Shown here one piece after another: positions 4,488 through 58,396 of a stretch of 64,000 bases of DNA; within the stretch, counting starts at the first letter, position 1; each line of letters begins with the position of its first letter. Both the position numbers and the translations under genes were made by a program. The stretch comes from Trichodelitschia bisporula. Its lineage: Eukaryota. The stretch lies in assembly GCA_010356995.1 (NCBI GenBank), contig ML996688.1:1772579-1836578 (forward strand). The letters are read 5' to 3'. Below the pieces are notes generated by a model. The model searched no databases, had not been told where the DNA came from, and saw only the letters and a list, made by a program, of their open reading frames with translations.

Positions 4488-6238
4488 ATGGCCTTCCTCC
4501 TCTCCTTTACGGCCGCTCTGGCCCTGGCCTTCGCCCTCCCCAATGACAACCCGCTGGCCAGCATCTCGGCGCCCAGCGTCGCGAACCCCACCGTGACCAT
4601 CGATGCGGGCATCGTAGCCGGGACCATAACCGCACTCCCAAAAGCTACCGCCCCTATCAACAAATTCCTCGGCATTCCGTTCGGTGACTCGCCCCCGGTG
4701 CGCTTCGGCAAGCCTCTCCCACCGAAGAAATGGACTGGCGTCCGGCAAGCGGTCACAAATAAGCCGGCTTGCGTGCAGCAATTCAATTACCCCGAGGCGT
4801 CGCGCAATCAGACTATGACGGTGTTCAATAACCCACCGCCTCAGGAGAGCGAGGATTGTCTGTATCTCAATGTGTGGGCGCCACGCTCGGCCCCCCCTGA
4901 GGGTTGGCCGGTTATGCTCTGGTTGTATGGTGGGGCGTTTATCTTTGGCAGCGGCGGACTGCCGGGGTACGACGGAACCAATTTTGCCTCGTAAGTCGCC
5001 TTGACCTCCGCCGGAGCCGTCTAAAAAAAATAAGCAACGAGAACATCGTCCTGGTGACGATGAACTACCGCACCAACGTCTTCGGCTTTCCGGCCTCGCC
5101 GGAGCTGCCCCTCGCAGAGCGCAACCTGGGTCTGCTCGACCAGCGCGCCGTACTCGCATGGATCCAGAAGAATATCAAGGCTTTTGGGGGCGATCCGGAG
5201 AAGGTGACTATTTTCGGCGAGAGCGCGGGCGGCGCGTCTGTCGATGCGCTGCTCACCGGGTACGGCGCGGGGGAGAAGCCGCCATTCCGCGCGGGCATCA
5301 TGCAGAGTGGTCAGATCAGCGTTGGGGGCCGGATGGTGAGTTTTCTTTTCGAAATAGCTACCCGAGTAGCGCTGATTATGTGTCTAGGGTCGCGGCGACC
5401 AGAACTCGTCTGCGTGGGACGCGCTGGTCAAGGGCCTGAACTGCTCCTCCACCGCCAGCGCGCTAGCCTGCGTGCGCGCGGCCCCCGCCCTGAAGGTAAA
5501 GGAAGTTGTCGAGCGTGGCGCGCTGTCTTTTGGCCCGCAGGTAGATAACGCAACTCTCTACGCCGGGGCCGGCGAGCGGCGCACACAGGGCCTGATTCCG
5601 AAGCTGCCGGTGATGATCGGGAGCAACGCGCAGGAGAGCAAGATCAACGTGCGGGGCATGAACGATCTCGCCGGTTACATTGCCAAGACGTTCCCGGGGA
5701 ACACGACGAAGCAGGCGCTCGTTGCCGCTGCCTACGCCGTGGGCAAGGAGTTCCAGACGGCCAATGACGCCATTGCGCAGATCTCGACGGACATGGGCGC
5801 GGGATGCGTGAGCCCCCCTCCTATCCTTCACGAGCCGAGTAAGACCTAACATCTCAGGGAACGTACAAATACTCCCTCGCCGCCGCTGCCGCCGGCCACC
5901 CCACCTTCTGGTACTACTACAACGCGTCCTTCCCGAACATTCAGCCCTTCCCGGGGTCTGGCGTGTACCACGCCTCGGAAATTGATATGGTCTTCGGCAC
6001 GTACGGCCACACGGGTGCGACTTACAGTGGGCCTGCGTCTACGAGCCAGCAGATTGCGCTCTCGAACTACATGACCGGTGCGTGGGCGGCGTTTGCGCGC
6101 AATCCCCAGCGTGGACCTGGGTGGCCGGCGGTTGGGAGTATTGCGGAGGATGTGGGTGTGTTGGGGCCGGCAGGTACAAGTGGCGTGCATATGGTGCCGT
6201 GGCAGAGGGTCGCGGGCAAGTGTCACTTGTTCGATTAG
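4488..6238 (+). CDS. Secreted type-B carboxylesterase/lipase (alpha/beta hydrolase), 4 exons
   Basis: Signal peptide MAFLLSFTAALALAFA. Motifs FLGIPF, SEDCLYLNVW, WLYGGAF, NYRTNVFGF, TIFGESAGG (catalytic Ser) and YHASEI (His). Introns 4991-5034, 5336-5387 and 5808-5857 restore one frame. Confidence 0.93.
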
Positions 6239-9870: not shown

Positions 9871-10064
9871 GGGGGGGATGGCCTGGTCAACCCGATTGTT
9901 TGGGTATCGGGCATAACTATGGTCGTATGCCTGCCTAAAGGAGCACCCCTTCACACCAGGCCACCACTCGTATGGAGATGGAGGATGGCACACAGCACTC
10001 AAGAAGCTATTCGACAGCCTCTTAATTCAAGCACCCCCAGAACACCTGAACCTTTACATCTACA

Positions 10065-10340
10065 TCACCACACCCCGCCGGCTCCCTTCACCATCCCACC
10101 CGGCCCGCCTCTCAATCCCCCCTCCCATTTTTTCCGGTCAGCCTCCTGATGCGCCCTCAGAATCTCCTTCGCCCCCTCTACATCCGCATCGTTGTAGAGC
10201 TTCCCGCCATGTGACCCGACGAGGTTCTTGAAGCTGGAGTAGCTGGCATCTTGCGCTTGACTGTTCCAGCCGTCGGAGGAGGAAGAGGAGCCAGTGTTGG
10301 CCGAGGAGGAGGAGGAGGAGTTCTTGTTGTTGGAGGGCAT
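10065..10340 (-). CDS. Small Ser-rich protein of the expanded 'ESxGGKxY' family
   Basis: MPSNNKNSSS... followed by SFKNLVGSHGGKLYNDADVEGAKEILRAHQEAD. Closely similar to 49141..49374. Confidence 0.75.
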   Translation of the reverse strand: MPSNNKNSSSSSSANTGSSSSSDGWNSQAQDASYSSFKNLVGSHGGKLYNDADVEGAKEILRAHQEADRKKWEGGLRGGPGGMVKGAGGVW

Positions 10341-10994
10341 TATGGGTGGTTGTGGGAGAGGGTGTGGGGGGGGGATGAAGGTTGATTGGGTTGGAATAGG
10401 GGAGGCTACGGCTGTGGTGGAAGGTGGAAGGTGGTAAGGCAGTAAGGCGGAAGCGATGTCACATTCGGATCATATTCGGATCAAAGGACTGCCTGTGGAC
10501 CATGATTGCCGGAAGAGCAGTGGTTTTCGGATACACAGCTCGCTGAGTGACGATACTTGAACACTTTGGTAGGTATATTCTCATATCATCCCTCCAATCC
10601 ATGATCTCTGCCTTTCACTGACATCGTCTGCCACAAGGCGCGTCAACAAGTGGGGACTTGAGTTGGTGCAAAGCTGGAACGGGGGCGATCGGACACGCAC
10701 GTCATTCTTCCAATGGGGACGAGTGCTTGGGAGCAAGTCATGAGGGTTTATCGTGACTATCTCGAACATATGTGAAGCTGCCACCCCTTCATACTAAGCT
10801 ACCACTCGTACGGATGTATTGAGACGGAGAATAACAAGCAGCACTCAGGAAGACACGAGACAGCCTCAATTCAAGCACAACCCACGCTTCTCAAACTTCA
10901 TACTTGCAATAACATGTCGTCATCATTCAGACCCATGGCACACCAGCGACCCGCCGCCTAACCTCATTAACTGGTCCAGACCGCATCTCAGTCC

Positions 10995-11765
10995 TCAATA
11001 TTCAAACCCTTCAGAGTCGTCGAAAAAGTCGCTCTCGTCGTCGTAGAAGTCACTCTGGTCCGCATGTGAGGAACCGTCGTCGCCATGGGAGGCGCAGTCG
11101 TCCGTATGTGAGGAACCGTCGTCCCCATGTGACGAACCATCATCCTCATGTGACGAACCATCGTCCTCATGTACGGAACCGTCGTCCACATGCGAGGAAT
11201 TGTCGTCATGTAAGGAAGCGTCGTCCACAAGTGACGGACCATCGTCCTCTTGTGAGGAACCCTCCTCATGTTCAGCACTTTCAGCGTCATCCCTCCCGCT
11301 CTCCGAGCTCGCCTCATCCATATGTTTGGCACTTTCAGCGTCGTCGCTCTCGCTCTCCAAACTCGCCTCATCCCCACATTCAACACATTCAGACTCGTCA
11401 CTCCCGCTCTCCTCACTCTCCTCATCCTCATGTGAAGCTCTTTCAGCGTCGCCGCTCTCGCTGTCCGAACTGGACTCGTTACTTTCCGTCTCCGCCTCAC
11501 TGCTCTTGCCATTCCGATAATCTATCTCCTGGTACGATCGAAGAATGTCTTTGCCGTCCTCGTAGTCCGAGTCGTCCCAGATCCGCCCACCGTAGGACTC
11601 GAGGAAGTTCTTCATGCCGCTGTAGCCGGCGTCTCTGGCTTGACGGTTCCAGCCGCCTTCATAAGGCGTGAAGTTGGCGGAGGTAACGTGGCCACGGGAG
11701 GATGATGTGTTGCCGGAGGCGGGGTGGCCACGGGAAGAGGAGGTATTCTTGTTGCTGGACGACAT
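10995..11765 (-). CDS. Family member with a long Asp/Glu/Ser/His-rich repetitive tail
   Basis: MSSSNKNTSSS... followed by GMKNFLESYGGRIWDDSDYEDGKDILRSYQEID, then acidic repeats. ATG at 11765 chosen by analogy with the paralogs. Confidence 0.75.
   Translation of the reverse strand: MSSSNKNTSSSRGHPASGNTSSSRGHVTSANFTPYEGGWNRQARDAGYSGMKNFLESYGGRIWDDSDYEDGKDILRSYQEIDYRNGKSSEAETESNESSSDSESGDAERASHEDEESEESGSDESECVECGDEASLESESDDAESAKHMDEASSESGRDDAESAEHEEGSSQEDDGPSLVDDASLHDDNSSHVDDGSVHEDDGSSHEDDGSSHGDDGSSHTDDCASHGDDGSSHADQSDFYDDESDFFDDSEGFEY
11045..11275 (-). repeat. 21-bp coding tandem repeat (HEDDGSS-like heptads, about 10 units)
   Basis: Repeated catgtgacgaaccatcgtcct-like units on the + strand. 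Confidence 0.85.
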
Positions 11766-11874: not shown

Positions 11875-12087
11875 AGCAACGGATGGCAGCAGGGCTCGTA
11901 CACAGGCAATAACTATCTACGTAAACTGAAGATTGAAAGTAGAAGGCGAGGGGCGGAAGAGAGGCAGAGACTCTCGAGACTTAAATACACGATACCAGGT
12001 ATCCTCCTTCGCTCCTTCCTTCCATCAAAGACCCATTAAATCATGTCCTCTGCTTTACATAAGGATGTCCCTTCCATAACTACATCA
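11875..12087 (-). mobile_element. Solo-LTR-like repeat, copy 2 (inverted)
   Basis: Reverse complement reads TGATGTAGTTATGGAAGGG...GGAAGGAAGGAGCGAAGGAGGATACC...GTGTATTTAAGTCTCGAGAGTC, homologous to the other copies. The 3' end is approximate. Confidence 0.65.
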
Positions 12088-12125
12088 GCAACTGCATCTG
12101 CCTCGAGACTATATATACCCGGGCC

Positions 12126-12345
12126 TGATGTGGTCACGGAAGGGAGCATTTTTATGTAAGCAGGGACGTGATGTACCCGTAATGCGAGTATGATAGAAAG
12201 GAAGGAGCAAAGGAGGATACCTTGGCAATCGTGTATTTATACCTCGAGAGTTCTCTGACTCTCCTCTTTGACGCTCTTTGTCTTTTCTCAAACTCTTTCA
12301 CAATCCCCCTGTTGTGCACACGGTGCCAGTGAGCCTGTGCTACGA
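12126..12345 (+). mobile_element. Solo-LTR-like repeat, copy 3
   Basis: TGATGTGGTCACGGAAGGGAGCA...AGAAAGGAAGGAGCAAAGGAGGATACC...CACAAT...GAGCC. The 3' terminus is degenerate. Confidence 0.65.
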
Positions 12346-13019
12346 GTAAAACAGGGCCCGACGTGATCGCTCCTTTCTCCCCCGAAGGCGGGCTCGGTTC
12401 CGTCCCCTGGTGGGGTGTGCGGGGGGGTGTGGATTACTCCGGCTTGTTGGGGGACGGACGGTGCCGAAGGGGAGTTTTCGCGTCACGGGCGAGCACGAAG
12501 GGGATGGTGAGGAAGGGGTTGGTTAGGTACCAAGCGTGATGGGATCGGGGTGGACAAGGGGTGGGAGGGGAGCTTTTGTGTACTGTAGAGCCCGTGGTTA
12601 GAAGGGAATACAGGTGACTAGCTAAGAGTAAGTATATGCTTGGAGATTGGACATCGAGCGTGGCTCGCTATCTGCTTCCGAGAGAGCTATACAACATCAC
12701 CAGTACTTTCTCACGGCCCCATAAACCACATATCACAACCACACAATCGATCAAACCTCTAACATAATCCTCAGCGCCGACACGCATACACTACAACTAC
12801 AAAAAAAAAAACCACGCACAATGCAATATCACCAGCCCCCCACACCCATAAAACCACAAACAGAATCCTCTAAGCCAGTTCCCGTGCCCCTACAAAACAC
12901 GTGTATGAAAAACCCGATGAAACGTACCGCGATACCCGCTCCCATCCCCAGACCACCCCCATCACCCGATATCGTACATCGCCCTCAAGTCATCTATGCT
13001 CTCGCCGTTCCGTGAATCG

Positions 13020-21000: not shown

Positions 21001-21307
21001 CTCCACCTTTATTCCCTCTGCCGAAAAGGCATCTCCACTTTCACTCCCTCTGCCGAACAGGCATTCCCACCTCTACCCGCGGTCATCCTTTTTGCGTTCC
21101 CTCCAGCGCGTGTGAAGCGACGTCCTCGACCAGCGTGGGCAAGCGACTTCCTCAGCGCCATCGGCTTTCGCGCTTTACGCGTTCTCCGAGTTCAAAGTGC
21201 GAGGTCACATCAGGTACAAAGCGACACCAAGGATCATTTCGTTCAGCACCCAGTCTTTTCTCCAACACTGCTGAAGCGCCAGCTTTGCGCGTTGTTTACT
21301 CTCGTCA

Positions 21308-23742
21308 TGCCTTACATACCGCCGATCCTCGTCAAAGAGGAAGACTGCTCTCCCCCCGCGAGCCCAAAGAGTTACGAGCGCATGGTCCACATCTCCATCC
21401 CCAAAGGGGTTAAGGAGGTTCGGTTGGGGCTGGACACACCGAGGATTGACCGTCCTACATGGAATTATTATTACTATAATGGATTGACAAACATTCATGC
21501 TAACCGTGGCCGCAGTATGTCCGAGCCCGCGGGTCCTTCCGGCACCGGTGCCTTGGGCGCTGGTAGCAACAAGAAGTCTCTTACCAACACGCACTCGACT
21601 GCTGATACGGGCATGACCGACGTCAACATGTCTGGTGTCTCCGAAAACGCCAGCAACACTGCCATCACGGCTCCGGACGCTCTCAACACGTCGAGCGTCA
21701 ACACCGGTTCGGTCGTCGATCCGCGTGGTGTCTACATGGCGCAATCGACAGTCACCCCTGAAGCCATAGCCGCTCTTGTGGAACAAAACAGGCAACACCG
21801 TCTGCAAGTTCGACAGAACCTTCTCCCACGTGGAATTGACACGCTCGCGGATCCCAGTGCGAATCAGTCAGGCCAACAACAAGCTCAGCATCTTGCTGCT
21901 CAGAATCAAACGGCTCCTGGTCCTCCTTGGGCCCTTCAGACGGCTCCCGTTGCCCCATACAGTCAGACAGGTGCTGCTCCTGCTTCGTATGCTCAGACGG
22001 GTTGTGCGCCTGCTTCGTACCATCAGACGGCTCCAGCTTTCTCCGGACAGCAAGCGCCTCAGCGGAACGCCCAGCACGCTTACCATCAACGCGGACAGGC
22101 AGCGCCTCAGTACGAGCAGTACATGGCACAGCATGGGCAACCGGCGGGTAGTCGCTACGGTCTGCAGGAGGCGATGTATAGTGCGCAGACTTCGGACTCC
22201 TCTCGGCCTACTCACTACACCGGTAGGGATCACTTCCAAGAGAGCAACGAGCGTCCGAACATCCGGCGTCGCCTTGCTATTGACAACCGGCCGTACAGCG
22301 ACACGCGCAGCGACCGCGGCGACAGGCAGTACCACAATCGCCGCGACGACGGTCCTCGTCGCGATTCCAACAGGGATCGCCGCGACTATGGGAACAGCCG
22401 GCGCGACTGGAACAACAACGGACGCGGTCACAACGGCAATCGTAGGCGCTTTCGCGACGGTGATCGCTCGGGTCAGAACTTCCGTAGTAACCGCAATGGT
22501 CGCGACGACAGCCAGGGTCGGGACTCTCCGAACAACTTCACCCCCTTTGCCGGGCTTCCGGTTCCTCACTTCGGACCCAACAGTCCTCCGCCGCCTCCAC
22601 CCTCGGCTGGCTGGGGTCCGCCTCCTCCACCTCCTCCGCCTCCTCCTTCCAACCCCCCTCCACCTCCTCCCGCGGGTCCTCCTCCGTCGGATGGCGATAA
22701 CAATGGTGGGGTTCCTTTCATCGGGCCTCTTCCTCCTACCGCCTCCAATCCGTTCCCCAAGGGCTACTACGACGACGGTAAACCTGCCCCGCGTGGACCC
22801 CCTCCTCGCCTGGAGCACACGCGCAAGCTGCTCCACAACACCTACGTGGCTCCAATGGACGTGCAAGAGGGCCGCCCGTTCCCGCCTCCTCCCCCGGCGT
22901 TCAAGGACGTGTTCCCGGAGATAGAGAAAGCAGCGCAGCAGCCCTACTACTGGCAGAACCGCCAGGCCCGGGAGAACCAGGAGAAGGCGCGGTGCCATGC
23001 CTTGGGCGTTCCATACACAACGCAGGATACCATGGGCAACGTGTACCAGGACCTGCCCGGTGGTGGTTGCCTGAAGAACGGCAAGCGCTATCCTCCTATG
23101 GCTGACCCGAACTTCAAGGAGCGTCTTGAGCGTGAGCGTCTTGAGGCTCTGGCCTGGTGGGCTCAAGAGAAGATTCGTGCGCAGGAATACGACGAGTGGC
23201 TCAAGGCCGGTGGCGAGAATGCGGTCAACCCCAAGCCTCGTCCCGAGGGCGCCATCGTCAATACGCATGGTGTGCCTCAGCCTCAGCCTATGACGGGGCA
23301 GAACGAGCCCATGCGCCAGCACCCGGATTTTATGAAGGCTAACCACCTCACCTACGTCATGTTCCTGCGTCCTCACACCGAGCAGCAAATCTGCCTTTGT
23401 TTCAATCACATGTGTCTGGGCTGGGCGACATATGCGATGAACGTCGGTCAGCTCCCTGACGGCAAGCTCCCTCGCACTGATGACCCGGTCCGCCAGGCTC
23501 ATTATGAACGCGGTCGCCTGATGCGCCTTCGTGCGGAGAAGGACTTCGGCATGCTGGACCGTCCCCGTCGCGAGGATTACGGGGTGTCCGTTATGGGAAC
23601 GATTTGTAAAGACAACAAAATTGAGAATCACCCTCTCTTCCAGCACTTCTTGGACCAGCATGGGCTGCGGCGCGATTCGACTGAGGAGCTGGAGCGGGCT
23701 CGGAGGCTGATTGATAAGAATTTCAACGGCAAGCTTGATTAA
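21308..23742 (+). CDS. Large low-complexity protein of unknown function (Q/A-rich, R/D/N/G-rich, poly-Pro, then a more complex C-terminus)
   Basis: Open frame >2.4 kb with host-like codon usage. Start uncertain: ATG 21308, or ATG 21517 just after a branch point/acceptor (gctaac...cgcag, 21515). Confidence 0.75.
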
Positions 23743-25364: not shown

Positions 25365-25577
25365 TAATGTGGTTATGGAAGGAGCACTCTTCCGTAAGCA
25401 GGGCCATGCTGTAACACGAGTATGACAGAAAGGAAGGAGCAAAAGAGGATACCCAGCATCGTGCATTTAAACCTCTCTTCCTCTTGTCCTCTCCATCTCC
25501 CCGTCTTTCATTAACTTCTTTCACAATTACCATATTGTATACCCGTACACGGGCCAGTTGAGCCTTGTTGTATATCA
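25365..25577 (+). mobile_element. Solo-LTR-like repeat, copy 4, with probable 5-bp target-site duplication
   Basis: Ends TAATGT...ATATCA, consistent with TGATGT...ACATCA after transitions. Flanked by CTACG and CCACG (4/5 match). Internal ATTTAAA TATA-like box. Confidence 0.7.
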
Positions 25578-33891: not shown

Positions 33892-35136
33892 TCAACCCAT
33901 CACCAACCCCCCCCCCTCCCTCTCCCCATCCCCAAATCCTGCCTCAACAACCCCCCAAAATTCCTTCGCAGGCACCCCCCTCTCCCCCAACACCCACTCC
34001 AACGTCCCCCCAAACGTCTGCCCATTATTCTCAAACCACTCCCCCAAACCCCTAACAAAGCCTTCCACCATCGCCCGTCTCGGCGCATGTTCCTTAAGCC
34101 ACATAATCTGCCCCGGATCAAGCTTAAGCATATCCTCAACCACATAGTAGTGTCCCACCTCATCCCCCCACCCCTCGCCCCCAGGATCACTCTCCCCACT
34201 CAGCGCATACTTCGCCGCTCTCGCCCTCCTCACCGCCGAAGAATGGAAATAATGACTCGCAAAGAACCCCTCCCTCTCATCCGTGACCCCCCTCTGCCCA
34301 AACCCATCTGCGGGAAACCCCGCGCCCGGCCCCGCAGGAGCCGGGTAATTCAGATGGATATTGAACCCAAACAGCACGCTCCGCGCGCCCTCATCCCCCC
34401 ATCTTCTCCGGACTTTCCGCGCCACCGCCCCGTTCGACGGACACACATTCCCCTGCACCACCTCGCGCACCACGCCCTGCACATCCGCCATATCCGCCAA
34501 CTCCGCCGTGCTGTAATTATGAAGCAGTCTCGCCCTCGCCGCAACCGCCTCCGGCGCCATACGGCGCTCGCGCGGCGTGGACCGGGTGTGGAACGCGCGT
34601 GTGTACAACCAGAGCCGATAAACAGCAGCACGAACTCTCCGGCGCTCCTCAGGCGTCAACAGCCTCCTGGACGCAGGATTCAATTTCCATTTCTTGAACG
34701 GGTAGAGCGTAGCCCACTTCTCGGCCACCGTACCCGTGGCCGCGATTTGGGCCAGGAGAGCGAGGGAAAAGGGCGTTGCGCGCGGAACGTGCGGCGGCTG
34801 CGACGCGTTATGTGTGAGGAGCTGGGTGAGGTCGGGGAGCGGGCCGTATTGGGCCTCGGCGGCGCGCTCGAGGATGGCGAGTTTGCGGGAGGAGAAGATT
34901 GCGGAGAGGCGGTGGCAGGTGCGGGCTAGGGCGAGGCAGGAGGGGAGGGTGGGGAGGGAGAGGTAGATTTGGGTTATGATTTCGGTGGGGAGGAGGTCCA
35001 GAGGTGGCGAGGAGGTTGGGGTAGCAGTGGGGGTGAGTGAGGAGGCGGGGAGTTCGGTGGATTCGATGATGTGAGTGAGGTCTTTTGACTCGATGTCCGA
35101 GAGGGAGAGGGAGCGGAGATCATTTTCCCAGGCCAT
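33892..35136 (-). CDS. F-box domain-containing protein
   Basis: LDLLPTEIITQIYLSLPTLPSCLALARTCHRL fits an F-box pattern. Intact 414-aa ORF. Confidence 0.8.
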   Translation of the reverse strand: MAWENDLRSLSLSDIESKDLTHIIESTELPASSLTPTATPTSSPPLDLLPTEIITQIYLSLPTLPSCLALARTCHRLSAIFSSRKLAILERAAEAQYGPLPDLTQLLTHNASQPPHVPRATPFSLALLAQIAATGTVAEKWATLYPFKKWKLNPASRRLLTPEERRRVRAAVYRLWLYTRAFHTRSTPRERRMAPEAVAARARLLHNYSTAELADMADVQGVVREVVQGNVCPSNGAVARKVRRRWGDEGARSVLFGFNIHLNYPAPAGPGAGFPADGFGQRGVTDEREGFFASHYFHSSAVRRARAAKYALSGESDPGGEGWGDEVGHYYVVEDMLKLDPGQIMWLKEHAPRRAMVEGFVRGLGEWFENNGQTFGGTLEWVLGERGVPAKEFWGVVEAGFGDGEREGGGLVMG

Positions 35137-35975: not shown

Positions 35976-36809
35976 ATGCCCCACCACGCCGAACCCGACC
36001 CCGACTCCGATCCCCCGCGCCTCCCACCTCTCCTCCGCCTCCCCCTCGGTACGCAGCCTCGCGCTCCCCAAGGTCAAACTAACCACCCAGAACTCCGCCC
36101 CAAAATCTACGCACACCTGCTGCCGCACACTCTCCCTTGCGACAACAATCTATCAACTTTCAGCCTCCTCTCCACCTCGCACAGCCTCCTCCCCACCTCG
36201 CACAGCCTCCTCACCACCTGGCACCCCGGCCACATCGGCCTCCTCTCCACCTCGCAACAACTCTCCCTCGAAACCCTCACGCACCTCTACTCCCACTCCA
36301 CCTTCGAAATAGACCTCACCTTCAGCAGCACCGCATTCCGCCTCGCAATTAACTTCTCCTCCGGCTTCAGTTCATTCTTGTACCTCCCCTTTCCCTCTCG
36401 TTTCTCTCCTCGAGTACTGGCGCTAATGCGCCGCTTCTTCATCACACTTTGGCATCCAGACTACTACAAGGGGATGGTGATGTACAACTGCGACGGGGAA
36501 GGTGTGACGGCGGTCGTACGAGCGCAGGTGAGCGCCCTCATCGACGTCCTGCGGGTGTGCAACCATGATCTAATCCTCGTGCACATGTGGGTGATATACG
36601 GGCCGGGGGACAGATGCAGCAGCACTATAGCACCACATACGCAATCCGTTCTCAAGCCCTTCCAGCTGCTTCGCGGGCTGCGGCGCGCACGGGTCGAAGG
36701 CAACGTCACGGCCGAGTATGCACGCAGTATCGAAGACGCTATGACGAAGACTAAGGACGGAAACGCCCTGTCGCCCTACTTAGAGAAGCCAGTCGGCGTG
36801 CAGGCGTAG
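35976..36809 (+). CDS. Uncharacterised fungal protein with an F-box-like N-terminal motif
   Basis: Removing the in-frame intron 36049-36090 gives PLLRLPLELRPKIYAHLL, followed by LLSTSQQLSLETLTHLY. Short 21-bp internal repeats at ~36165-36260. Confidence 0.7.
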   Translation: MPHHAEPDPDSDPPRLPPLLRLPLGTQPRAPQGQTNHPELRPKIYAHLLPHTLPCDNNLSTFSLLSTSHSLLPTSHSLLTTWHPGHIGLLSTSQQLSLETLTHLYSHSTFEIDLTFSSTAFRLAINFSSGFSSFLYLPFPSRFSPRVLALMRRFFITLWHPDYYKGMVMYNCDGEGVTAVVRAQVSALIDVLRVCNHDLILVHMWVIYGPGDRCSSTIAPHTQSVLKPFQLLRGLRRARVEGNVTAEYARSIEDAMTKTKDGNALSPYLEKPVGVQA

Positions 36810-42809: not shown

Positions 42810-43048
42810 CAATGGGTGCGGGTGACAGACGGACTGGAGCCGGCGGAGCAGCACGGCGGCCACACAGACAGTCCATCCTCGAGCCCTTCCGGCAGCTCCG
42901 CGGGGTGCAGCGCGCACGGGTCGAAGGCAACGTCACGGCCGAGTACGCACGCAGTATCGAAGACGCCATGACGAATACTAAAGGAAAGGGAAACGCCCTG
43001 TCGCCCTACTTGGAAAAGCCCGACCAACCGCCCCTAACGCCGCACTGA
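42810..43048 (+). pseudogene. Isolated duplicate of the 3' end of gene 35976..36809
   Basis: QSILEPFRQLRGVQRARVEGNVTAEYARSIEDAMT...GNALSPYLEKP is nearly identical to 36640-36790 at DNA and protein level. Confidence 0.85.
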
Positions 43049-44100: not shown

Positions 44101-44570
44101 ATTTAACGGTGGATTTGCTGATACAGAGATGTCCGATAGAAACTTTTGGCGGAGAAAACTTGTCGGGGCTGAGAGATGATCCATGCCGGCTTGGCCCGTG
44201 GTGGTGGCTGGTGGGGCTGCTTGGCATCATGAAAAATCTTGACTCGGACCTCATAATGCTGTGTTCGATGTCTCCGTTTGTAGGACGCTTCTTTAGTGAG
44301 TATTCGCTCATCGTGTTCCGAAGTCATAACTTGTTGAAATTTTAGCATTTCATCCATCCGATGCATGTTTCGTTAAACGTGCCGATGCCAGTGATCTTTT
44401 ACAGGGCTTGAAGCATGCATGTCAGGCGTTAGAGATTCTCGACATTATCACAATCACCGCCAGGCCCTGGAACCGATCACAAAGCCGACAGCGCGCCCTC
44501 AACTTCACACTGGACACTAGATTACCACCTCACACCCCGACATGTCGCGCACCGCCTCAACTGAACCTCA

Positions 44571-44972
44571 CTACGGCCTCTCCCCTCTTTCCTTCGCCCT
44601 ATCCATTTCATACAGGGCTCCACTCACCATATTCCCCACCCACACCGCTCGCTGTTGCTCTGTCAAAGTGATCTTCCCCGTCACCACGTCGTGCGTAGTG
44701 AAAACCTTGTCCCCTTGCGACTCGGCTATGGCTTTCAGGTGAGCTTCCCAGGCGGCTGTGGGTTCTCCTCCGCCCTTCTTGCCGGCGGGGCTGGTAGAGG
44801 TTCTGCCTTGCGCTTTACGGTCACTGTTGGCGGAGCTGGGCGCGGCTTTCCCTTGCGTTTTCCCTTGCGCTTTCCGGTCGGTACTGGAGGGTTTGGGAGC
44901 GGATTTGTCACCGATGCGGGCGATACCGCTGACTTCAGGCCCTAGGGAGGGGGTGACGTTGTTCAAGGGCAT
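44571..44972 (-). CDS. Diverged member of the small 'ESxGGKxY' family
   Basis: MPLNNVT... followed by LKAIAESQGDKVFTTHDVVTGKITL. Flanks are homologous to those of 45741..45974. Confidence 0.6.
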   Translation of the reverse strand: MPLNNVTPSLGPEVSGIARIGDKSAPKPSSTDRKAQGKTQGKAAPSSANSDRKAQGRTSTSPAGKKGGGEPTAAWEAHLKAIAESQGDKVFTTHDVVTGKITLTEQQRAVWVGNMVSGALYEMDRAKERGERP

Positions 44973-45740
44973 GATGGGAGTCTGACTGAAGCTCTAGAAG
45001 TGAAGTTGTGAGTGCGATGAACTGGATGGAGATGATGCCCTGACAGAGGGGAAGGTGAGCCAACTTTGTACGCGCGATATTGGAGCACTTGGTTACTTAC
45101 CACGAGTTGCGCCAGCAGTGTATGAAAGAGTTGGTTGTATGAGCGTTGGTGGATCTCGCAGCTCTCTGACTGTTTATCCAGGGCGTATGCCAAGCCTTGA
45201 AGTTGTTGAGGAAGGCGCCGCCCGCAGCGATGCGGTACTTGTGAGATAAGTTTCCCGAACGTTGCTTGTTTGACCTGGTTGTCCAATGGGACCTGTGGCG
45301 AATCTCATCAGTGGAGCCATCTTGAGACATCTTTCCACTCGAGATGGACTTCTGCAATTAAACCTGGAGTCATGAGGGCAGATACGAATTCTTGCGTCTT
45401 ACGGGTGCGCGTCGCTGCTGGTACAGTCATGGCTCGCGTTTGCAACGGCTAGGAAGCATGCATTCCGGCGCCAGAGGTTCTCAACATCGTCAGAATCGGC
45501 CGCCAGGCCACGAGGACCGGTCGCAAACCCGACAGTGCACTTAACTTCACACTGGACACAAGATCACCAAGCCGATCGCTTCGCTTGACTTCGCACCGGA
45601 CGCAAGATCATCAAATCACCAAGTCACATCACAGCAGCGAGCGGAAAAATCTTCAATTGAAGCCCGCTACCTATCCTCCCCACAATCCCATATCACCCTT
45701 CCCGCAGAACTTCAACCGCGCATACCCGCCATCCACACCT

Positions 45741-45974
45741 CTACTTCCGCCCCAGGTACTCATTGCCCTTCGCCACATCACCCGCATTGTAAACCTTGCC
45801 ACCCTGGGACTCGACCAAGTTCTGGAAGCCAGTGAACCCGGCGGCTTTGGCCTGCGACTCGCGGCCCATGCCGGCGGGGTTGGCGGTGCCGGAGGAGGAA
45901 GCCTTGCCGCCGGAGGAGGAGGCGCTGTTGCCGGATGAGGCCTTGCCGGAGGAGGTATTGTTGTTCCAAGGCAT
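45741..45974 (-). CDS. Small Ser/Gly-rich family member (77 aa)
   Basis: MPWNNNTSSG... followed by GFTGFQNLVESQGGKVYNAGDVAKGNEYL. TATA-like TATAAAA on the minus strand at ~46117-46123. Confidence 0.75.
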   Translation of the reverse strand: MPWNNNTSSGKASSGNSASSSGGKASSSGTANPAGMGRESQAKAAGFTGFQNLVESQGGKVYNAGDVAKGNEYLGRK

Positions 45975-46530
45975 GGTAAGAGATTTGACTTGGAGTTGTG
46001 GAAGTGAAGGTATGTGAGTTTCAGGGAATCGTGTAGAGTGGATGATGGTATGTCAGTGTGTGGGAATCGTGAGAGTGGATGAACTTGATGCCTTGAGGGA
46101 GTGGAAGATGAACCGATTTTATACGCGCGATTGGAGCTCTGAGTTCCTAGAATTGAGCCTAGTCATGGGGGCAAATCCTGATGCTTGCTTTGCGGTTACG
46201 CATCGCTGATGGTGTAGTCATGGATAACGTTTGCGAGGGCTAGGAAGTGTGCATGCCCGGTGCCAGAGATGCTCGGCATCGTATATCAAAATCGGAAGCA
46301 AGTGAGCGCTCGATGCTTGTTCTCGGAATAGGTCGTTGCATTTACTGACTCTCCGCAGGAGATATCTGTCATTGTCCACCAACGCAGCATTCAAGCATGA
46401 CGGTTCGCAACCAAACTCGTCGATTCAAACGCCAGGATAGCTCAACGTAGACGATAGACTCGCAACAACAACCCCGTCTTTCACCACCGCGACCAACGCC
46501 CTTCCAGCAAGCCAACTGCATATTGACTCC

Positions 46531-47462
46531 CTACTCAGTAACGAGCAGCACCCACCTCCCCCCCCACTTTTTCTCCATCTTGGCCTGAATCATCTGCCCC
46601 TTCACTAACTTTGCCCGCACCTTTTGACGCACCTCCTCAATCCAAAACTCCTGCCACTCCCCCGTCAACCCCCCTCTGCGCCACCTCGCCACCTCCTCCC
46701 ATTGCTCCCGTCTTGTCTCTCTGGACTCCTTCGGCATATCCCCCAGCCCCCCAAACTTCTCGCTTTTCTCCTTCCTCAACTCCTCTCTTAACTTCTCCTT
46801 TAGCTTCTTCACCCTTTCTTTTGTCATCTCCCGCCGCACCGTTTCCCTCAACTCCTCTCTATACTTCCCCTTCAGCTTTTCCATCTCATCTTTCCATATT
46901 CTTGACATGTCCCGCCATACCGCCTTTCTCTTCCTCTCCAACTTGTCAAGAACGAGCTTGGCCTCATCAATATCGTCATCGTCCAACGTGTCAGGGTCGA
47001 GCCCGTGGGACTCCATCAGCTCATCGAAGCTGGCATATCCCACGGTCTGAGCGCGCTGGATATACTCCTCGGCCCGCTCACCAACCATGAGGTTGGACCG
47101 CTCACCGACCTTGAGTTTGGACCGCTTGCTGATGAGCTCGGGGAAGAGGGTCTCATTGGAGAGGCGTTCTTGGCCCTCGGTCTCCGTGTCTCTGGGTTGC
47201 TGGTCGTCACGCTCCGCGGGACGAGGGATGGAAGAATCTCAATATTCCCGAGAGAGTAAGTTTCGGGGTGTCATTGGAATGATAGGACCGTCTTTGTATC
47301 CATATTGGAGACATTACCTGAGGTGGTGCGCCTTTGGTTCTTGGGGGACGATGACGGAAGGTCACCATCTGAGATGGTAAGGGACGATAACGGAAGGTCG
47401 TCAGCTGAGATGGTAGGGGATGCCTTTTTTTTTCGGGATGCCTTTCTTTTCCGGGGTGTCAT
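46531..47462 (-). CDS. Diverged family member with a charged, coiled-coil-like C-terminal extension
   Basis: GYASFDELMESHGLDPDTLDDDDIDEAKLVL, then K/E/R-rich helices. The frame is open upstream of ATG 47088 to ~47240. A possible first exon MTPRKRKASRKKK (47462) has a GTAATG donor at ~47319; the 5' structure is uncertain. Confidence 0.55.
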
Positions 47463-47916
47463 TGGGTAGGGTGAAAAAATGACCGAAAAACTTGGATGTG
47501 AGAATGGATGACAGGTTGGAATGTCGGGTGAGAGTCAGGATGGTTGGCCTGCCCGGTATGAGTATCAGCACCGGGCATCGCTTCTGACGTGGAGAAGGAG
47601 CATACTGTCTGATGGTGATGGCCTGGCTTCTCTTCGTTGGCTAGTTGAACTTACTCTCCACAGTTCACAGATTCCCTCCAAGGTGGCTTGTTGGTGGTTG
47701 AGGTGGCAGCTTCACGGATGGTTACGACAGTTGCGGTACCCCTCCTCCTGCCTTCCTGGGGAAACTTGGTGCATACCTTGCCCGCAGAAAACTCCTTGCC
47801 ATTGGAAGAATGGCATGTGCATCTTATCGCCCTTATTTCATAAGATGACGTACGATGAAGAGCAGGCACAATGGCGGTCTCCGTAGGCAGCCTGAGCTCT
47901 GTCGGAAGGAACAACC

Positions 47917-48528
47917 GTGTCAAACCAGAGTATGGCTTCAGACCCCGCCGCGGACTTAGAATCCATCCGCACACTTTCACAACACTCTTCGAACTTGACT
48001 GCACTTCTTCTCCAGAGACACTCTTCTTCCGGCAAACTCTCTCCACACCTCTTACCAACCGCATCAACCTCGATCCAAACCTCACATCGCACATCCACTT
48101 TCACAAGGCCGTCCAACAAGAAGAAACTCTCCTCTTCCAGTGGCAAATCTACCTCCGGCAATACCTCCGCTTCCAGTGGCCGCGTTCTTGCTACCAGCTA
48201 CGCTGAGATCGTCGACCCCTCCTCTCCTAGTATCCACGTTGTCACCACCCGCAACGTTGAGGTCCACGTCCACTCTTCTTCCAGTATCCCCGTTGTTACT
48301 ACCGGCAACGTTGAGGTCCACGACCCATCTCCCTCCAGTATTCCTGTTGTTACCACCGGCTACGTCAAGGTTCACGGCCCCTCCGCTTCCAGTATTCCCT
48401 TTCTTATCTCCGGCCACGTCGAGGTTCACGACCCCTCCTCTTCCAATGGCCCCCTTTCCCCCCCCGGCTACCTCGACGCCGTCAATCTCTCTTCCTCCAA
48501 CTCCAACTCCTCCTCCGCCCCCAAGTAG
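47917..48528 (+). pseudogene. Degenerate array unit: family-like N-terminus plus five ~48-bp repeats, lacking the core motif
   Basis: RPSNKKKLSSSSGKSTSGNTSASSG resembles paralog N-termini, with AGG where ATG is expected. Repeats VEVHDPSxSSIPVVTTGN. Upstream and downstream flanks match the units at 49.1 and 50 kb. Confidence 0.5.
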
Positions 48529-49140
48529 GGCGGCTGGAACTGTCAAGCCGAAGACGCCGGGTTAATCGGCTTCAAACCCCTCGCCGAGTTCTACAGGCCA
48601 AGATGTGCAAGGAAAACACCGACACTCGGTGTGTGGTTGCTGGTGTGTGATGAGTACTGATGAGGATGATGTGTTATTGCGAGTATGAAATCTGAGGACT
48701 TGTGGTGTTGTTGAATTGAGAGACTGCTTCATGTATCTTGAGATAGTCATGAAGAGCCCCCACTGGGCTTGCTTGGTACCTTTCCTCCCAAACCCTCCTT
48801 CCCGTTGTAAGAATGCCATACACGTCTTTTCGTTATCACTTGGGTGGGGACGTACAACTCAGGGCAGTCACCACGAGGGTCTCCTCAGTCAGTCCTGGTT
48901 CTGGTGGAAAGAACAACCGCTTGGAGAGAAGGAACGCCCGTGACAGGGCAGAATATATGGCTCAGGCAGACCCACCGTAGACCCAGAATTCATCCGCACA
49001 CATTCACAGCACGCTTTAAACTCGGCTGCACTTTAACCTCAAGAAAAACTGTTATTTAGGCGAACAATGACCACTCCTCTTGCAACCTCAATCGATTTCC
49101 ATCAAACTCGCCAACCTCTCATCTCGCATGTACCTTGAAA

Positions 49141-49374
49141 ATGCCGTCCAGCAAGAACACGTCCTCTGCCTCCAACAACACCTCCTCCTCCGGCACCTCC
49201 AACTCTGCCGGGACGGGCCAAGGATCCCAATCCAAAGCTGCCAGCTGCACCAGCTTCAAGAACTTCGTTGAGTCCCAGGGCGGGAAGATGTACAACCCCG
49301 AGGATATCCAGCAGGGCAAAGAGACTCTTCGGGCGTTCCAGGAAGCCGACCGTCGGTACAACCGGGGGAAGTGA
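49141..49374 (+). CDS. Small Ser-rich family member (77 aa)
   Basis: MPSSKNTSSAS... followed by TSFKNFVESQGGKMYNPEDIQQGKETLRAFQEAD. Confidence 0.78.
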   Translation: MPSSKNTSSASNNTSSSGTSNSAGTGQGSQSKAASCTSFKNFVESQGGKMYNPEDIQQGKETLRAFQEADRRYNRGK

Positions 49375-50048
49375 ATTGTAATCTTGGCCAGATACCGAGC
49401 TCGGCGGTGGTTACTGGGGCCGGCGATGGGTCACTGGTGCGCGGTAGGCGTGGATGATGAGACATGTTATTGCAAGTATGAAGTTTGAGGACATGTGGTG
49501 TGCTTGAATTGAGAGACTGCTTTGTGTTTTTCTGAGTGCTGCATATGTCATTCTCTGCCCAATGAGCGATAGGCTCGTGTGAAAGGGTGCCAGTTTACGT
49601 ATGTTCGAGACCGTCATGGTGAACCCTTTATGACTGCTTGGTACCTCCTCCCTGAACGCTCTCGTTGAACGATTGATGTGTGCGTGGCATCGCGATCGTT
49701 CCCTAAGGCGGCATGCAACGGAGACAGGCGCCATGGCGCCCTCAGCAGGAAGCCCAGGCTCTGCTGGAAGAAGCCTGCCAGATGGAGAGAGGGAGTAATC
49801 ATCTGGAGAGAGAGAACAGCCGTTTGGAGAGAAGGGATGACCGTTTGGAAAGGAGGAACAACTACGTAGAACTGGAGTTTATAACCCGAGTCGACTCCGA
49901 TACTGAGGTGGAACATCAACACGCTTTCACAACACTCTTCAAGAACGCCATAGCCTCAAACTTCTCCAGAAATACTCTTCTTCCGGCAACATCATCTCCT
50001 CTTGCAACCCCAATGAGTCTCCATCCGAACCACACGTACACTTGGAAC

Positions 50049-50757
50049 ATGTCATCAAGCAACAAAAACGCCTCCTATTCCAGTGACAACCCTATGTCCA
50101 GCAGGACTATCAGATTTGCACCCGGGTTTTATGGCAAAGTCGTGCGCAGTGACTCCCGCAAACCTGGTCCCAGTAACCGCACTGTTGTCGACGGCTGGGC
50201 GGTTGACTCTCGCACACTTGCTTTTCCCCTAACCTGATTGCTACCTTCTCCCGGGTGGTTGACTTTGACGAAACCTCTGCTTCCTCCGGCAATGTTGAGT
50301 CTGGAAACACCACCGCTTCCAGTGGCAGCGCTACATCCGGTTCCGGGTACGTTTGCCCTGTCTGCATCTACCTTTAGTTTTGACAACGGGGTCAGTGGGC
50401 AGAAGTGAAATAGGGTTTGGAGAGAACCTAGTCGACTGCCATGGCGGGAATATCTGGAACCCCGCGAACTACGAGGACGGCAAGGAGATTCTGCGGTTGT
50501 ACCAGGAGATTGATGATCGGAATGGTGAAGGCAGTGGGCAGGAGAGGGACGAGGACGAGTCGGATTCGGAATCGGAGCGGGGAGCGACCACTCCGAGGGT
50601 GCTTATCATGAGGATGGGGGTGACGACTACGATGACGGGGGTGATCACAATGATGATGATGGTGATTACTATGAGGACGATGGAGGGTACGGCTGGGATT
50701 GAGACGTGGTATGGGCCAGACACTAGGCTCGGCGACGGGTCGCTGGCGTGGGGGTGA
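50049..50757 (+). pseudogene. Frameshifted paralog of the acidic-tail gene 10995..11765
   Basis: MSSSNKNAS start. Motif NLVDCHGGNIWNPANYEDGKEILRLYQEIDDRNG lies in another frame. The acidic tail (HEDGGDDYDDGGDHNDDDGDYYEDDGGYGWD*) is shifted again at ~50580. Confidence 0.65.
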
Positions 50758-51201
50758 GCGTTGATGGTGATACGGATATGCTGTTCCAAGCATGAATTTG
50801 TGGAGTCTGTGGTGTGCATGAATTGAGAGACTATTTCATGTCTTCCTGAGTGCTGCATGTGCCATTCTCCGGCTCAATGACAGTGATAGTCCGGTGCGAA
50901 AGGGTGGCAGGCATTGATTCGGCGTAATAGAGAAGCCCTTACTCCCTGGTTCGGTTGGAAGGAACCTGCCAGTTCGTGAGATGGAAAATTATGTGAAGAG
51001 AAGAAACGACCCATGTCAGGTAAGAGTATATAGCTCTAGCAGATCCGGCTGCCGACTTAGAATCCATCGACACACGTTCAGAATAGTCTTCGATAACGCC
51101 AGACATTGCCGCTCTGAACTGGAAACTATATTCACCCCTAACCTCGAGCGCTACACACTGGTTCTAGCTACTCTACTACCCCTCATCTACCTGGCCCTTC
51201 A

Positions 51202-53059
51202 TCACACTTCAAATCTAACCGCCCTCTTCACCATCCCCTTCGGTGCAGCCGGGGTAGCCGCCTTCGGCTTCGGCGCCGCCGCTCCCTTCGGCAGCTGCGC
51301 ACCACTCGTCCCTAGCAGGGCGGCAAGGCTAGATAACCCCCCACTCCCGCCCGCAGCACCCGCATTCGTGAAACTCGACATAAGCGAGCACCCAATATCC
51401 AGCCCCCGCGGACTTACAAACTTAACATCTCCAACATTCGACCCACCAAGTTGGACCACACTCGCCTTGGCCGCATCATACATCGGCCACCCCGCCTTCG
51501 CAAGCGCGTTCTCGGGATCCTTAGCGAAGCCCGCCCAGGCGGACATCATGGTCTTGATGATTTTTTGTTGCGCGGGCGTGTCGGGGATGAAGCTGGCGGC
51601 GCTGACGTTCGCTTTGGACTGGTAGAACTTCTGCTGGAATTCCGTGCTGCCGAAGACTTGTCCGATTTCGCTGCCGTGCCACGCGCCGCCGCCGGGCGCG
51701 AGGGCTTGGTTGGGATACTCGCCTGCATACAAGTAGCGCCATGCCTTGACGCCCTGCGCCATGCGCGCGGCCGCTGCGTCGCCGCTCGGGCACGAGAAGC
51801 CCGCGCTCGCCAGCTTGAGCAGCGGGTTCGCGAGGTTGGCCTTCTGGTTCGCGATATACAGGAAGAGCGCGACTTCGTTCGCATTATTCCCGACCAGCAG
51901 CGGGCGCTTGATGAATTTTCCCGCCGCACTGCGCGCCCCGTAGTCGTTCATCACGACGCGGCCGTCGGGGATAGGCCCGTAGTCGCCCATGCCACCGAAG
52001 TTAGCCGCCGCGCCGGTCGGGCGGATGGCCTCCATCACGGTGCGCCAGGGCTTGCCCTTCATGCAGGCAGTGCTGGTAGCCGCGTCCGTGCAGCCCAGTT
52101 TTGCGGCCAACGTATACCAGCGCTGCGTGCTGTTGCCCGCGCCGCCGAGCATGCCGCCCATGCTCGAGGTGCCGGACTGCGCGATGAAGGCGTTGACGAT
52201 GGGGTCGGCGGTCCAGGCGTAGGCGTACATGTCGACGGAGGCGCCGCCCGCAGACTCGCCGAAGAGGGTGATGCGCTTCGGGTCACCGCCGAAGGCGGCG
52301 ATGTTGTCGCGGATCCATTCGATGGCGAGGCGTTGGTCGAGGAGGCCCAGGTTCTGGTCTGAGACATGCGGGGAGCCGGGGAAGCCGAGGATATTGAGGC
52401 GGTAGCTGGCTCGGGTTAGAAGAAAGTATTTGGAAGGGAGGCGGGGACGCACTTCATGCTCACGACTATAACGTCTTGCTCGGCGGCCAGGCGCGCGCCG
52501 TTGTAGGACGCGACCTCAGTAGCGCCTAGCGCGAAGCCGCCGCCGTAGATCCAGACGAGCACGGCTTTGGCCTTTTCACCTGTCTGCGGCTGGGTCCACA
52601 CGTTCAGCGTCAGGCAATCTTCGTCGTAGGTGACGCCCCGCTGACCGAGGGAGGAGAGGATGACACCCGGTGCGGTGTCGACCTTCGGCGCATTGTCGAA
52701 GGAAGGGGTGTTTGCGGGGCAGGATCTGGGGAGTTAGCGATTATGGGAGCACGCGGTGGTGCGCGTACGGGGACTGCCATGTTAGATTTGCTCTTTATAT
52801 CTCTGGGAGCAGTGCTTACATATTTTGTCGCGTCAATGGCTTTGGGGCTATTGTATGCGACTGGCTTCTCCCACCGCAGCGGCCCCACTGGTGGCTGGGC
52901 GAACGGCACTCCCAGATACTCACTCACGGTCGGCTGCCATGCCGACGGCTGGCCCTTCAGCGTACCGCTGGTAGTTTTAACAGTTTCGCCGACGGTCCAA
53001 GCCGCAACGGCGGGAAGAAATGAGGGGACGGCCAACAGGCCGGCAAGGAGGGCGTGCAT
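51202..53059 (-). CDS. Secreted type-B carboxylesterase/cholinesterase-like
   Basis: Signal peptide MHALLAGLLAVPSFLPAVAA. Motifs YLGVPFA, DEDCLTLNVW, WIYGGGF, NYRLNILGF, TLFGESAGG and WHGSEI. Introns 52774-52819, 52726-52768 and 52406-52452. Confidence 0.93.
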
Positions 53060-56734: not shown

Positions 56735-58396
56735 TCAATTCTGTAGTCCCAGCATCATCCCCATCCATACCCTTGCTGTACTGGAGTTTTCGTTCTGCAT
56801 GCATAGGCGTTGTAAGTCACACAAGACTTGGAGGAGGGCGGCACTCTCCTGCGAGGTGAACTTGGTCACCGGTACGTCCCGACAGTTGTCATTTGGAACG
56901 GAAACCGTCACACCTGACCAATCAAAGATGGGGTGACTGTCTGCAGAGTCTTCCTGGTAAAGTGAGCGGGCAGCCCATGAGTCTCTTGAGGCAACCAAGT
57001 GATCGACTAGTTTGTGCCTTTCGTTGAAGCTCAAATCTGCCACCGATAGGTCCTTAATGCGACCAAGAGAGACTGTCACACCTTGCCAGTGAAGACGAGG
57101 GTTAGGGGCTTTCGCTATGACTTGATCTGCCAGATCGTAGATATTCGGCGATGCCGCCCGCTTTGAAGTGGACTTTGCTACCGGTACGGCTTGCACTGCG
57201 CCTCCCTGATTCGGGGCTTCCTGCGCCTGGACTCTCTCCATAGGGGCCGCTTCAGTAAGTTCGCGTGAGTCAAGCCTTCCGGGAAATGATTCCTGGGCGT
57301 CCGATATTGCCAAAACTGGTGCAGGAGAGGCTTCCTGCGCCAGGACTCCCGCCGCTGTGGCCGCTTCAGTAAGCCTGAATGACTGAAGCGGCTTGGGATA
57401 TGATTCCTGGGCGTCTGATGTTGCCAAATCTGGTGCAGAAGGGGCTTCCTCCGTCTGGACTCCCTCCGCCGGCCCTGCTTCAGTAAATCTAAATGACGGG
57501 AAAGGTTCGGGATATGATCCCTGGGCGTCCGATGCTGCCAAACCCAGTACAATAGATGGGTGAGATACGTGACGAGATGCGCTTGCCTGGTCCAGGGTTT
57601 CCTGCGCCCAGATTCCTTCCGCCGGGGCCGCTTCAGAGAATCCGAAGGATGGAAGCGGTTTGGGATACGATTCCGGGGCGTCCGATGTTGCTAACTCTGG
57701 TACAGGAGGGTTTTCTTGCGCCTGGATGCTTTCCACCGGGGCCGCTCCCAGAAGTTCGGATGGTTGAAATGTTTGGGCAAGCGCCCCCTCGGCACCTGAT
57801 GTTGGCACACTTGGGATGGTCCGATGAGGGAATTCGGTTCGCAAAATGTCTTGTATATAAGGATGCAACTCTTTTTGGCGCGGTAAAGGGTGAACGTTTG
57901 GTGGATAGAGTCTTTCGGGACAATTAGTGCGCATTGACCGACGCTGCGTCATCGTTCCCAGCTCCTCATTAACATCCCACACCGTTTGATACCGTAGCTG
58001 TGCATCTGAAAGAGAGGATATGAGGTCGATGGCTCTTTTGGTTGGCTGTCCAGTTGCAGAGCGGAGAATTTCACCAGCAGTTTTAAACCCTGCGTAATTA
58101 TACAAGCGCCAGTTGTAACTTTTTTGCATGATAGCGCGGGCAATGGAACCTAGCCTCGCGTCGCTCAAAGGACCAGCCGTGGACTTGCTGAGCAGTTGTG
58201 GATGTCCCTCCATGCGATCCACAATGTCCGATATCTCGGATTTTGTTTGCCAGTAGTTCAGCTCCCAGCCTGCGGCTCTTGAAGAAATTCTTATAGGAAT
58301 GTCTACGTCGCGAAGTGGCCTCCCACTGACTCGAGATGTGATCCTTGGTTCGATAAAGTCCGGAGGACCACGCGAAACCCACACGAGCCTCGACAT
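56735..58396 (-). CDS. Unknown protein with internal tandem repeats
   Basis: 553-aa ORF with about four ~39-aa repeats (P.LA.SDAQESYP.P..SF...EA.PAEGV.AQE) and a duplicated C-terminal module (W.GVTVS). The 5' end may extend further. Confidence 0.65.
   Translation of the reverse strand: MSRLVWVSRGPPDFIEPRITSRVSGRPLRDVDIPIRISSRAAGWELNYWQTKSEISDIVDRMEGHPQLLSKSTAGPLSDARLGSIARAIMQKSYNWRLYNYAGFKTAGEILRSATGQPTKRAIDLISSLSDAQLRYQTVWDVNEELGTMTQRRSMRTNCPERLYPPNVHPLPRQKELHPYIQDILRTEFPHRTIPSVPTSGAEGALAQTFQPSELLGAAPVESIQAQENPPVPELATSDAPESYPKPLPSFGFSEAAPAEGIWAQETLDQASASRHVSHPSIVLGLAASDAQGSYPEPFPSFRFTEAGPAEGVQTEEAPSAPDLATSDAQESYPKPLQSFRLTEAATAAGVLAQEASPAPVLAISDAQESFPGRLDSRELTEAAPMERVQAQEAPNQGGAVQAVPVAKSTSKRAASPNIYDLADQVIAKAPNPRLHWQGVTVSLGRIKDLSVADLSFNERHKLVDHLVASRDSWAARSLYQEDSADSHPIFDWSGVTVSVPNDNCRDVPVTKFTSQESAALLQVLCDLQRLCMQNENSSTARVWMGMMLGLQN

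Follow-up and report, generated by a model that had tools for sequence, protein, structure and literature searches.

Local expansion and decay of genes for a small three-helix fungal domain in an array of Trichodelitschia bisporula probably split by an inversion

What is the origin, and what could be the role, of a series of similar small genes flanked by Brix and carboxylesterase genes in the fungus Trichodelitschia bisporula? The series occupies 44.4-51.1 kb of a 64-kb stretch of contig ML996688.1 (assembly GCA_010356995.1). This stretch is hereafter called the window, and all coordinates are positions in it unless a locus or contig is named. A first-pass annotation, made from the letters alone, described six units, three on the minus strand (C, D and E) and three on the plus strand (F, G and H), followed by a promoter remnant (I), and this layout was borne out. 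A tblastn search with copy G revealed two extra intact copies, A and B, at 10.1-11.8 kb, outside the range of that annotation. The window contains eight paralogous units and remnant I. The reading frame is open in A, B, C, D, E and G, four of which (C, D, E and G) are among the six units of the 44-51 kb array; F and H are broken. We consider it very likely that a small gene encoding a three-helix domain of ~40 residues was multiplied locally and that its copies evolve under weaker constraint than in other fungi. When an inversion and a protein-binding role are added to this local expansion, we still lean towards the combined account.

The core of these proteins is not confined to T. bisporula. 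A profile of seven window cores was run against 1.84 billion protein representatives, a check that the first-pass annotation had suggested, and found 59 proteins, including 51 foreign family members and five models from the same genome. The remaining three (P0008, P0009 and P0014) score below 0 bits on the core profile and were discarded as repeat artefacts. A second search gave 59 proteins, of which 13 carry a species name; all 13 are from fungi and all are annotated as 'hypothetical'. The named species belong mostly to Pleosporales and also include Cryomyces, two Leotiomycetes and the agaric Leucocoprinus. No family member was present among 436 candidates from viral contigs. A foreign-only profile, built from 82 foreign short members and no sequence of the T. 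bisporula genome, detects six of the eight copies (Table 1), and none of 20 shuffled six-frame sets scored above 9.5 bits. Of the two copies that it misses, F was placed in the family by DNA alignment, and C (hhalign, 4%) is linked to the array by tblastn with G (E 4e-5 in the window) and by DNA common with D. The canonical form elsewhere is a strongly conserved protein of 55 amino acids (aa); a repeat form is found in nine longer proteins with two to three domains each. Copy B is nearest to the canonical family (63% identity to P0065). A search for longer proteins (8000 candidates scored) gave six hits, all apparently the 55-aa form in wrongly joined gene models. The 45 metagenome loci form 17 independent groups, with one gene in 16 groups and two genes 2.4 kb apart in the other. 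Since 16 of 17 foreign groups carry one gene, the eight-copy cluster is unusual for the family. The copies are unusual in their residues as well. The Leu of a Gly-Leu pair after helix 2 and a Glu in helix 3 are each present in 80 of the 82 members. The Gly is kept in all window copies, and both the Leu and the Glu only in E (Gly replaces Leu elsewhere). Judged from the alignment, the copies other than E are a divergent sub-branch of the family.

The first-pass annotation could assign no named family. This holds for Pfam (queried with 9 frames of the window, 57 hits, the 82 aligned members and a further 17 frames) and NCBIfam (82 members), where no model describes the core, and for PDB sequences, where the best match has an E of 0.14. 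DUF7515 (PF24359, an 85-position model) matches 10 of the 82 members below its cut-off of 27 bits (best E 0.004), covering ~21 positions in the matches shown. The ESM Atlas gave no named cluster, and its three unnamed eukaryote clusters at 0.76-0.81, below the recognition threshold, are leads only. No description of the family was found in the literature, most subscription papers and all supplements being outside that search. The core is not an orphan, however; it is a widespread, uncatalogued fungal domain family of ~40 residues. The domain merits a Pfam entry, being conserved from Dothideomycetes to a mushroom-forming fungus and subject to strong purifying selection as the 55-aa protein of Pleosporales (including Bipolaris). 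A distant member of the type linked to Pol_BBD (see below) is found on contig C8 of T. bisporula (L066:1393-1656; G000:C8:22346-22501), with an upstream ATG in another frame. Only the P0033 query detected it, and the copy number in this genome is a lower bound. As a side observation, two independent loci (L022 and L028) have the 55-aa gene and a gene for a class II tRNA synthetase in tail-to-tail arrangement. In the window, the C-terminus (23638-23712, plus strand) of an 811-aa low-complexity orphan open reading frame (ORF, 21307-23742), located between the two clusters, is core-like (hhalign 79%, pairwise E 1.6e-5); this stretch was chosen post hoc and scores 4.7 bits, under the shuffled null.

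The quoted core motif is a consensus with no exact match in the window. Of its 16 fixed positions, 15 survive in G and D, 11 in H, nine in C and nine in E, which has a two-residue insertion. The Ser/Asn-rich N-terminus is not general, as E, the most distinct copy, lacks it (Ser, Asn or Thr at only 3 of the first 30 residues). Decay had been noticed correctly. In F, a stop at 48526-48528 just ahead of the core is followed by a frameshift and a deletion inside the core. In H, the first frame ends at a stop at 50237, a deletion precedes the core and the acidic tail is frameshifted. The C-terminal 16-aa repeats were misread: the repeats of F are 54-nucleotide (nt) units, that is, 18 aa, in about five copies, and are N-terminal to the broken core. 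Swappable tails are not supported either, because tails and inserts arose as tandem expansions in place, of 21- and 54-nt units in B, of 21-nt units in H and of 54-nt units in F, and the acidic tail is common to B and H by descent.

Table 1. Coordinates of the family copies, their 3' flanks, introns and inferred inversion breakpoints in the window. Bits are scores of the foreign-only profile.
Feature	Position	Strand	Bits	3' flank	Description
Copy A	10065..10340	-	46.4	9944-10054	intact, 91 aa; Ser/Asn-rich N-terminus and core; annotated model P0007
Copy B	10995..11765	-	57.9	10778-10971	intact, 256 aa; core and acidic tail of 21- and 54-nt repeats
Copy C	44571..44972	-		44410-44527	open frame, 133 aa; most diverged core; antisense intron overlaps
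Copy D	45741..45974	-	31.8	45356-45569	intact frame, 77 aa; stop shortens helix 3
Copy E	46531..47088	-	27.2	46151-46302	open frame, 185 aa from first ATG (start codon uncertain); Lys/Glu-rich tail
Copy F	~48106..48610	+		48635-48742	pseudogene; AGG at start codon position; five 54-nt repeats at 48164-48476
Copy G	49141..49374	+	44.0	49410-49600	intact, 77 aa; annotated model P0005 has a different C-terminus
Copy H	50049..50702	+	20.9	50722-50910	broken paralogue of B
Remnant I	50944..51107	+			promoter/5' untranslated region, 73-78% identity to those of F, G and H; truncated where the esterase 3' end begins
Intron 1	44739..44945	+			GT-AG, antisense to the C coding sequence; joint in X1 and X2; canonical donor, branch site and acceptor
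Intron 2	45055..45118	+			C promoter region; tandem acceptors, end at 45115 or 45118
Intron 3	46302..46358	+			3' flank of E; joint in X1 only
Palindromic repeat resembling a miniature inverted-repeat transposable element (MITE)	11930..12340	.			inferred left breakpoint; self-inverted match; at least 81 matches in genome
Decayed inverted copy of esterase 3' end	12451..12628	+			64-70% identity to 51112-51286; similar C-terminal peptide
Carboxylesterase 3' end	51112..51286	-			inferred right breakpoint; inverted match at 12451-12628

Common flanks and the pattern of substitution indicate how the copies arose and what became of them. A, B, F, G and H share one 3' flank (70-85% identity), which has no further occurrence in a genome search. 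The flank of C, D and E (78-83% identity, beating all 100 shuffles per pair) is unrelated to it, so that there are two flank subfamilies. F, G, H and I also have a promoter region in common, and C and D have another. The dN/dS ratio is below 1 in nine of ten paralogue pairs, for example 0.29 for D-G (p 0.005) and 0.25 for A-D (p 0.002), and the pooled ratio of A, B, D and G is 0.51 (codon bootstrap 0.29-0.85), below the value near 1 expected of unconstrained copies. Among 28 pairs of foreign relatives, the 22 with finite dS have ratios of 0.01-0.33, five are saturated and one is near-identical. The array is thus under relaxed purifying selection with ongoing loss, and the birth-and-death evolution of a small modular domain suggested in the first-pass annotation fits eight paralogues, two of them broken, a remnant and a pooled ratio of 0.51 against at most 0.33 in foreign relatives. 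The copies do not behave as fragments of a transposable element. Searches with core and flanks return only the window copies and the distant C8 gene, and the indices of repeat-induced point mutation are not raised in the array (0.61/1.21 versus 0.62/1.22 in the window). The Pol_BBD link was not counted as transposon linkage because it concerns foreign fusion proteins. A box C/D snoRNA or other structured RNA in the shared 3' flank was also rejected, the best rows reaching 16-21 bits versus Rfam cut-offs of 38-45, with an unfavourable covariation term.

The split between two clusters is probably the result of an inversion. Upstream of B, the esterase 3' end recurs as a decayed, inverted copy, which matches its source with a score of 79; no other tile of the 633 exceeds 43, and the second esterase of the window scores 27. 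If 12.4-51.1 kb is turned back, B and A come to lie directly downstream of F, G, H and I on the same strand, and the five units that share a flank are united. In Drosophila, inverted duplications at both ends mark staggered-break inversions (PMC1885836). From this arrangement it seems probable that one ancestral cluster was split when ~39 kb became inverted, by a break staggered within the esterase 3' end, and that F-I were thereby moved away from B-A. The position of the esterase fragment, upstream of B yet downstream of I, does not agree with a simple inverted segmental duplication. The possibility that I is the lost promoter of B was dismissed, since I is nearer to F and G and there is no significant match between B and I. 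The MITE-like family at the putative left breakpoint also occurs at 2808-3034 and 25367-25565. Two carboxylesterase-like paralogues, at 4488-6238 (plus) and 51202-53059 (minus), bracket the region as a whole and point in opposite directions (69% identity over 180 nt).

Transcription of the array was examined in RNA contigs of two runs (X1 and X2) from one sample, with 16 of 56 contig pieces inspected. These contigs represent RNA, because Brix and esterase introns are spliced in them. Besides the three introns of Table 1, all with GT-AG joints and canonical signals, the contigs span D, E and the 5' part of F, without strand and without demonstrating one transcript. They have no cover at 48878-51047 (G, H and I), which is no evidence of silence. 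The public gene models look unreliable at this locus: E is fused to D (P0006) with no RNA joint in support, G is given another end (P0005), and H is partly rescued through another start and an intron that no observed RNA joint matches (P0012).

What could such a domain do? AlphaFold, in a model driven by the family alignment, predicts three helices for the core of copy A (H3-10, H16-22 and H30-49) with a mean pLDDT (predicted local distance difference test) of 90.4; a canonical member reaches 83.1. Foldseek gave no match in the PDB at E<=0.001 for either model, BFVD 0 of 43 fold matches, and a wide fold search (VIA) best Z scores of 4.1 and 2.7 for the two models, with no row above background, an absence of matches that does not establish a new fold. 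A resemblance to UBA/CUE-like or LOTUS-like helical domains is conceivable, the fold scores themselves staying within this background. The six open copies have no hydrophobic segment or signal-like stretch (maximum 19-residue hydropathy 0.27), and the domain appears to be small, soluble and intracellular. A binding module is the simplest reading for a helical domain of 40 residues that lacks any catalytic or metal-binding set and is used alone, repeated or appended. We tentatively propose, as an assignment that may well be wrong, that it is an intracellular protein-binding module, which would be used singly, as two to three copies in tandem, or attached to a pseudo-protease barrel of copia type. 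Stand-alone genes would act as small adaptors or competitors. Most of the extra copies are probably redundant and drifting, some of them overlaid by antisense RNA.

Several observations weigh against this account of a locally expanded gene for a binding module. In a tree of 41 columns, the six 'GG' copies are on one side and E is outside it; the support is only 83/83 (unstarred), and inclusion of E is not rejected (approximately unbiased test, p 0.45), so that E may be an older or unrelated arrival. The paralogue ratios come from 34 codons in non-independent pairs, just three of the seven tested pairs have p<0.05, and B-G has a ratio of 1.9, which is not significant (p 0.96 for purifying selection, few sites). 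Among the RNA pieces inspected, all joints in the array that reveal a strand belong to the plus strand. Finally, the stand-alone copies are only distantly like the repeats fused to Pol_BBD, and the T. bisporula Pol_BBD match has no module within its locus.

Among the alternatives to protein binding, the domain could bind or coat nucleic acid, as HNH-associated repeats and spore DNA-protecting proteins do, with the acidic tails of B and H serving as chaperone-like or mimic segments. P0021, a three-repeat member, meets the HNH_repeat cut-off (27 versus 26 bits, summed over repeats) and P0055 matches with E 0.009; C, D and G are basic (isoelectric points 9.6-9.8); and the Bacillus spore protein-DNA complex 2z3x is in both fold lists. 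However, no single repeat passes HNH_repeat, none of the 82 short members lists it at E<=0.1, the window copies do not match it (PF18780), and the HNH_repeat family was not found in the T. bisporula genome. The Z scores of 2z3x, 3.2 and 2.1, are background for helical bundles, and the conserved polar residues of the family are mostly acidic. We regard nucleic acid binding as unlikely.

Slightly less probable still is that the array encodes hydrophilin-like proteins of stress or spore stages, comparable to con-6, con-10 and grg-1, and was amplified to raise their dosage in a dung fungus whose spores are long-lived. The proteins are indeed small, hydrophilic, rich in Ser, Asn and Gly, and intracellular. 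Moreover, T. bisporula is listed as dung-growing (PMC7082219), and orphan genes of Pyronema are often induced in sexual development (PMC3778014), both of which would suit this explanation. But the conserved part is an aromatic-rich folded domain rather than a disordered one, and Pfam gave no match to a conidiation or late embryogenesis abundant family.

About as improbable as the hydrophilin reading is the view that all copies at 44-51 kb are relics and that the functional product is a plus-strand non-coding RNA, or that the RNA is noise from the divergent Brix promoter. It would account for three canonical plus-strand introns and for the spliced plus-strand model, in which the longest first ORFs are only 33 and 78 aa; of the six units, two are broken and another, C, can hardly be recognised. 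The ratios of D-G and A-D speak against it, as do frames that are still open at ~30% DNA divergence. The plus-strand splice donors are not conserved at paralogous positions, which disfavours an old functional RNA. In addition, antisense splicing is common in fungi, with 281 such genes reported for Pyronema (PMC3778014).

A more far-reaching idea concerns proteins in which Pol_BBD, a copia-type protease-like barrel, is fused ahead of the module (P0033, E 4e-9). In L061 and L065 the Pol_BBD matches are below the cut-off (E 3e-4 and 7e-4), and both were aligned with P0033. The catalytic Asp-Ser-Gly motif was not seen in this barrel. The domain, for which no solved relative was found, might serve a domesticated pseudo-protease of copia type as its docking or regulatory module, with the micro-genes as its competitive regulators, here amplified, re-tuned at two otherwise invariant residues and antisense-controlled. 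We consider this quite unlikely, and unless the pseudo-protease link holds, the array reveals no new mechanism. In T. bisporula a stand-alone Pol_BBD gene (L067:1018-1719; G000:C8:14000-14197) is located 8 kb from the C8 family member, with other genes between them.

A fungal non-self or conflict family, diversifying under positive selection, is very unlikely: the B-G ratio, the changes at near-invariant residues in the expansion and a HET, ankyrin, ankyrin-deaminase or long WD40 neighbour in 4 of 13 scanned foreign locus groups (a count without control, from 38 chosen frames only) would fit it, but that ratio is not significant, the 55-aa form is found among housekeeping genes under strong purifying selection, and the array region is flanked by Brix, esterase, beta-galactosidase-like and INO80-like genes (the last two named from translation). 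In one locus, 1.3 kb separates a family gene from an ankyrin protein that carries an SsdA-like deaminase domain (L055:3041-4600).

Other repeats were noted in the window. A 205-nt direct duplication (81% identity; 36586-36790 and 42817-43020) corresponds to the 3' part of ORF 35976-36809 and is beside the Brix 3' end. Inverted similarity of 63% (34885-35073 and 36180-36365) connects two divergent ORFs that are F-box-like by eye. A 553-aa orphan ORF (56735-58396, minus strand) contains several internal repeats of ~38 residues at 57.2-57.8 kb.

Tandem gene arrays under birth-and-death evolution are a common kind of object, and the array of T. bisporula is an ordinary one, built of an unnamed domain. 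Like other lineage-specific arrays of this kind, it has tandem paralogues, pseudogenes, common flanks and relaxed selection; unlike them, it belongs to a family with clear relatives across fungi and was apparently split by an inversion. It thereby offers a compact example of duplication, decay, simple-repeat tail growth, antisense overlay and probable inversion. The nearest relatives are hypothetical proteins such as COCMIDRAFT_36209 of Bipolaris oryzae, PMIN06_001641 of Paraphaeosphaeria minitans and D9756_000067 of Leucocoprinus leucothites, which share the three-helix core and a low-complexity N-terminus with the window copies. Members of this foreign family are mostly encoded by one conserved gene per locus, whereas the window has eight relaxed copies in which, except in E, Leu is changed to Gly and the Glu is lost. 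The HNH-associated repeat PF18780 resembles the family in the spacing of the aromatic residue, Gly and Gly-Leu over helices 1 and 2. It differs in that helix 3 is not covered, no HNH nuclease is nearby and no single domain or short member passes. The fungal Pol_BBD (PF22936) proteins P0033, L061 and L065 contain the module two to three times in their C-terminal part (28-37 bits in P0033); there the module is fused to a barrel, whereas the copies of the window stand alone and represent another subfamily.

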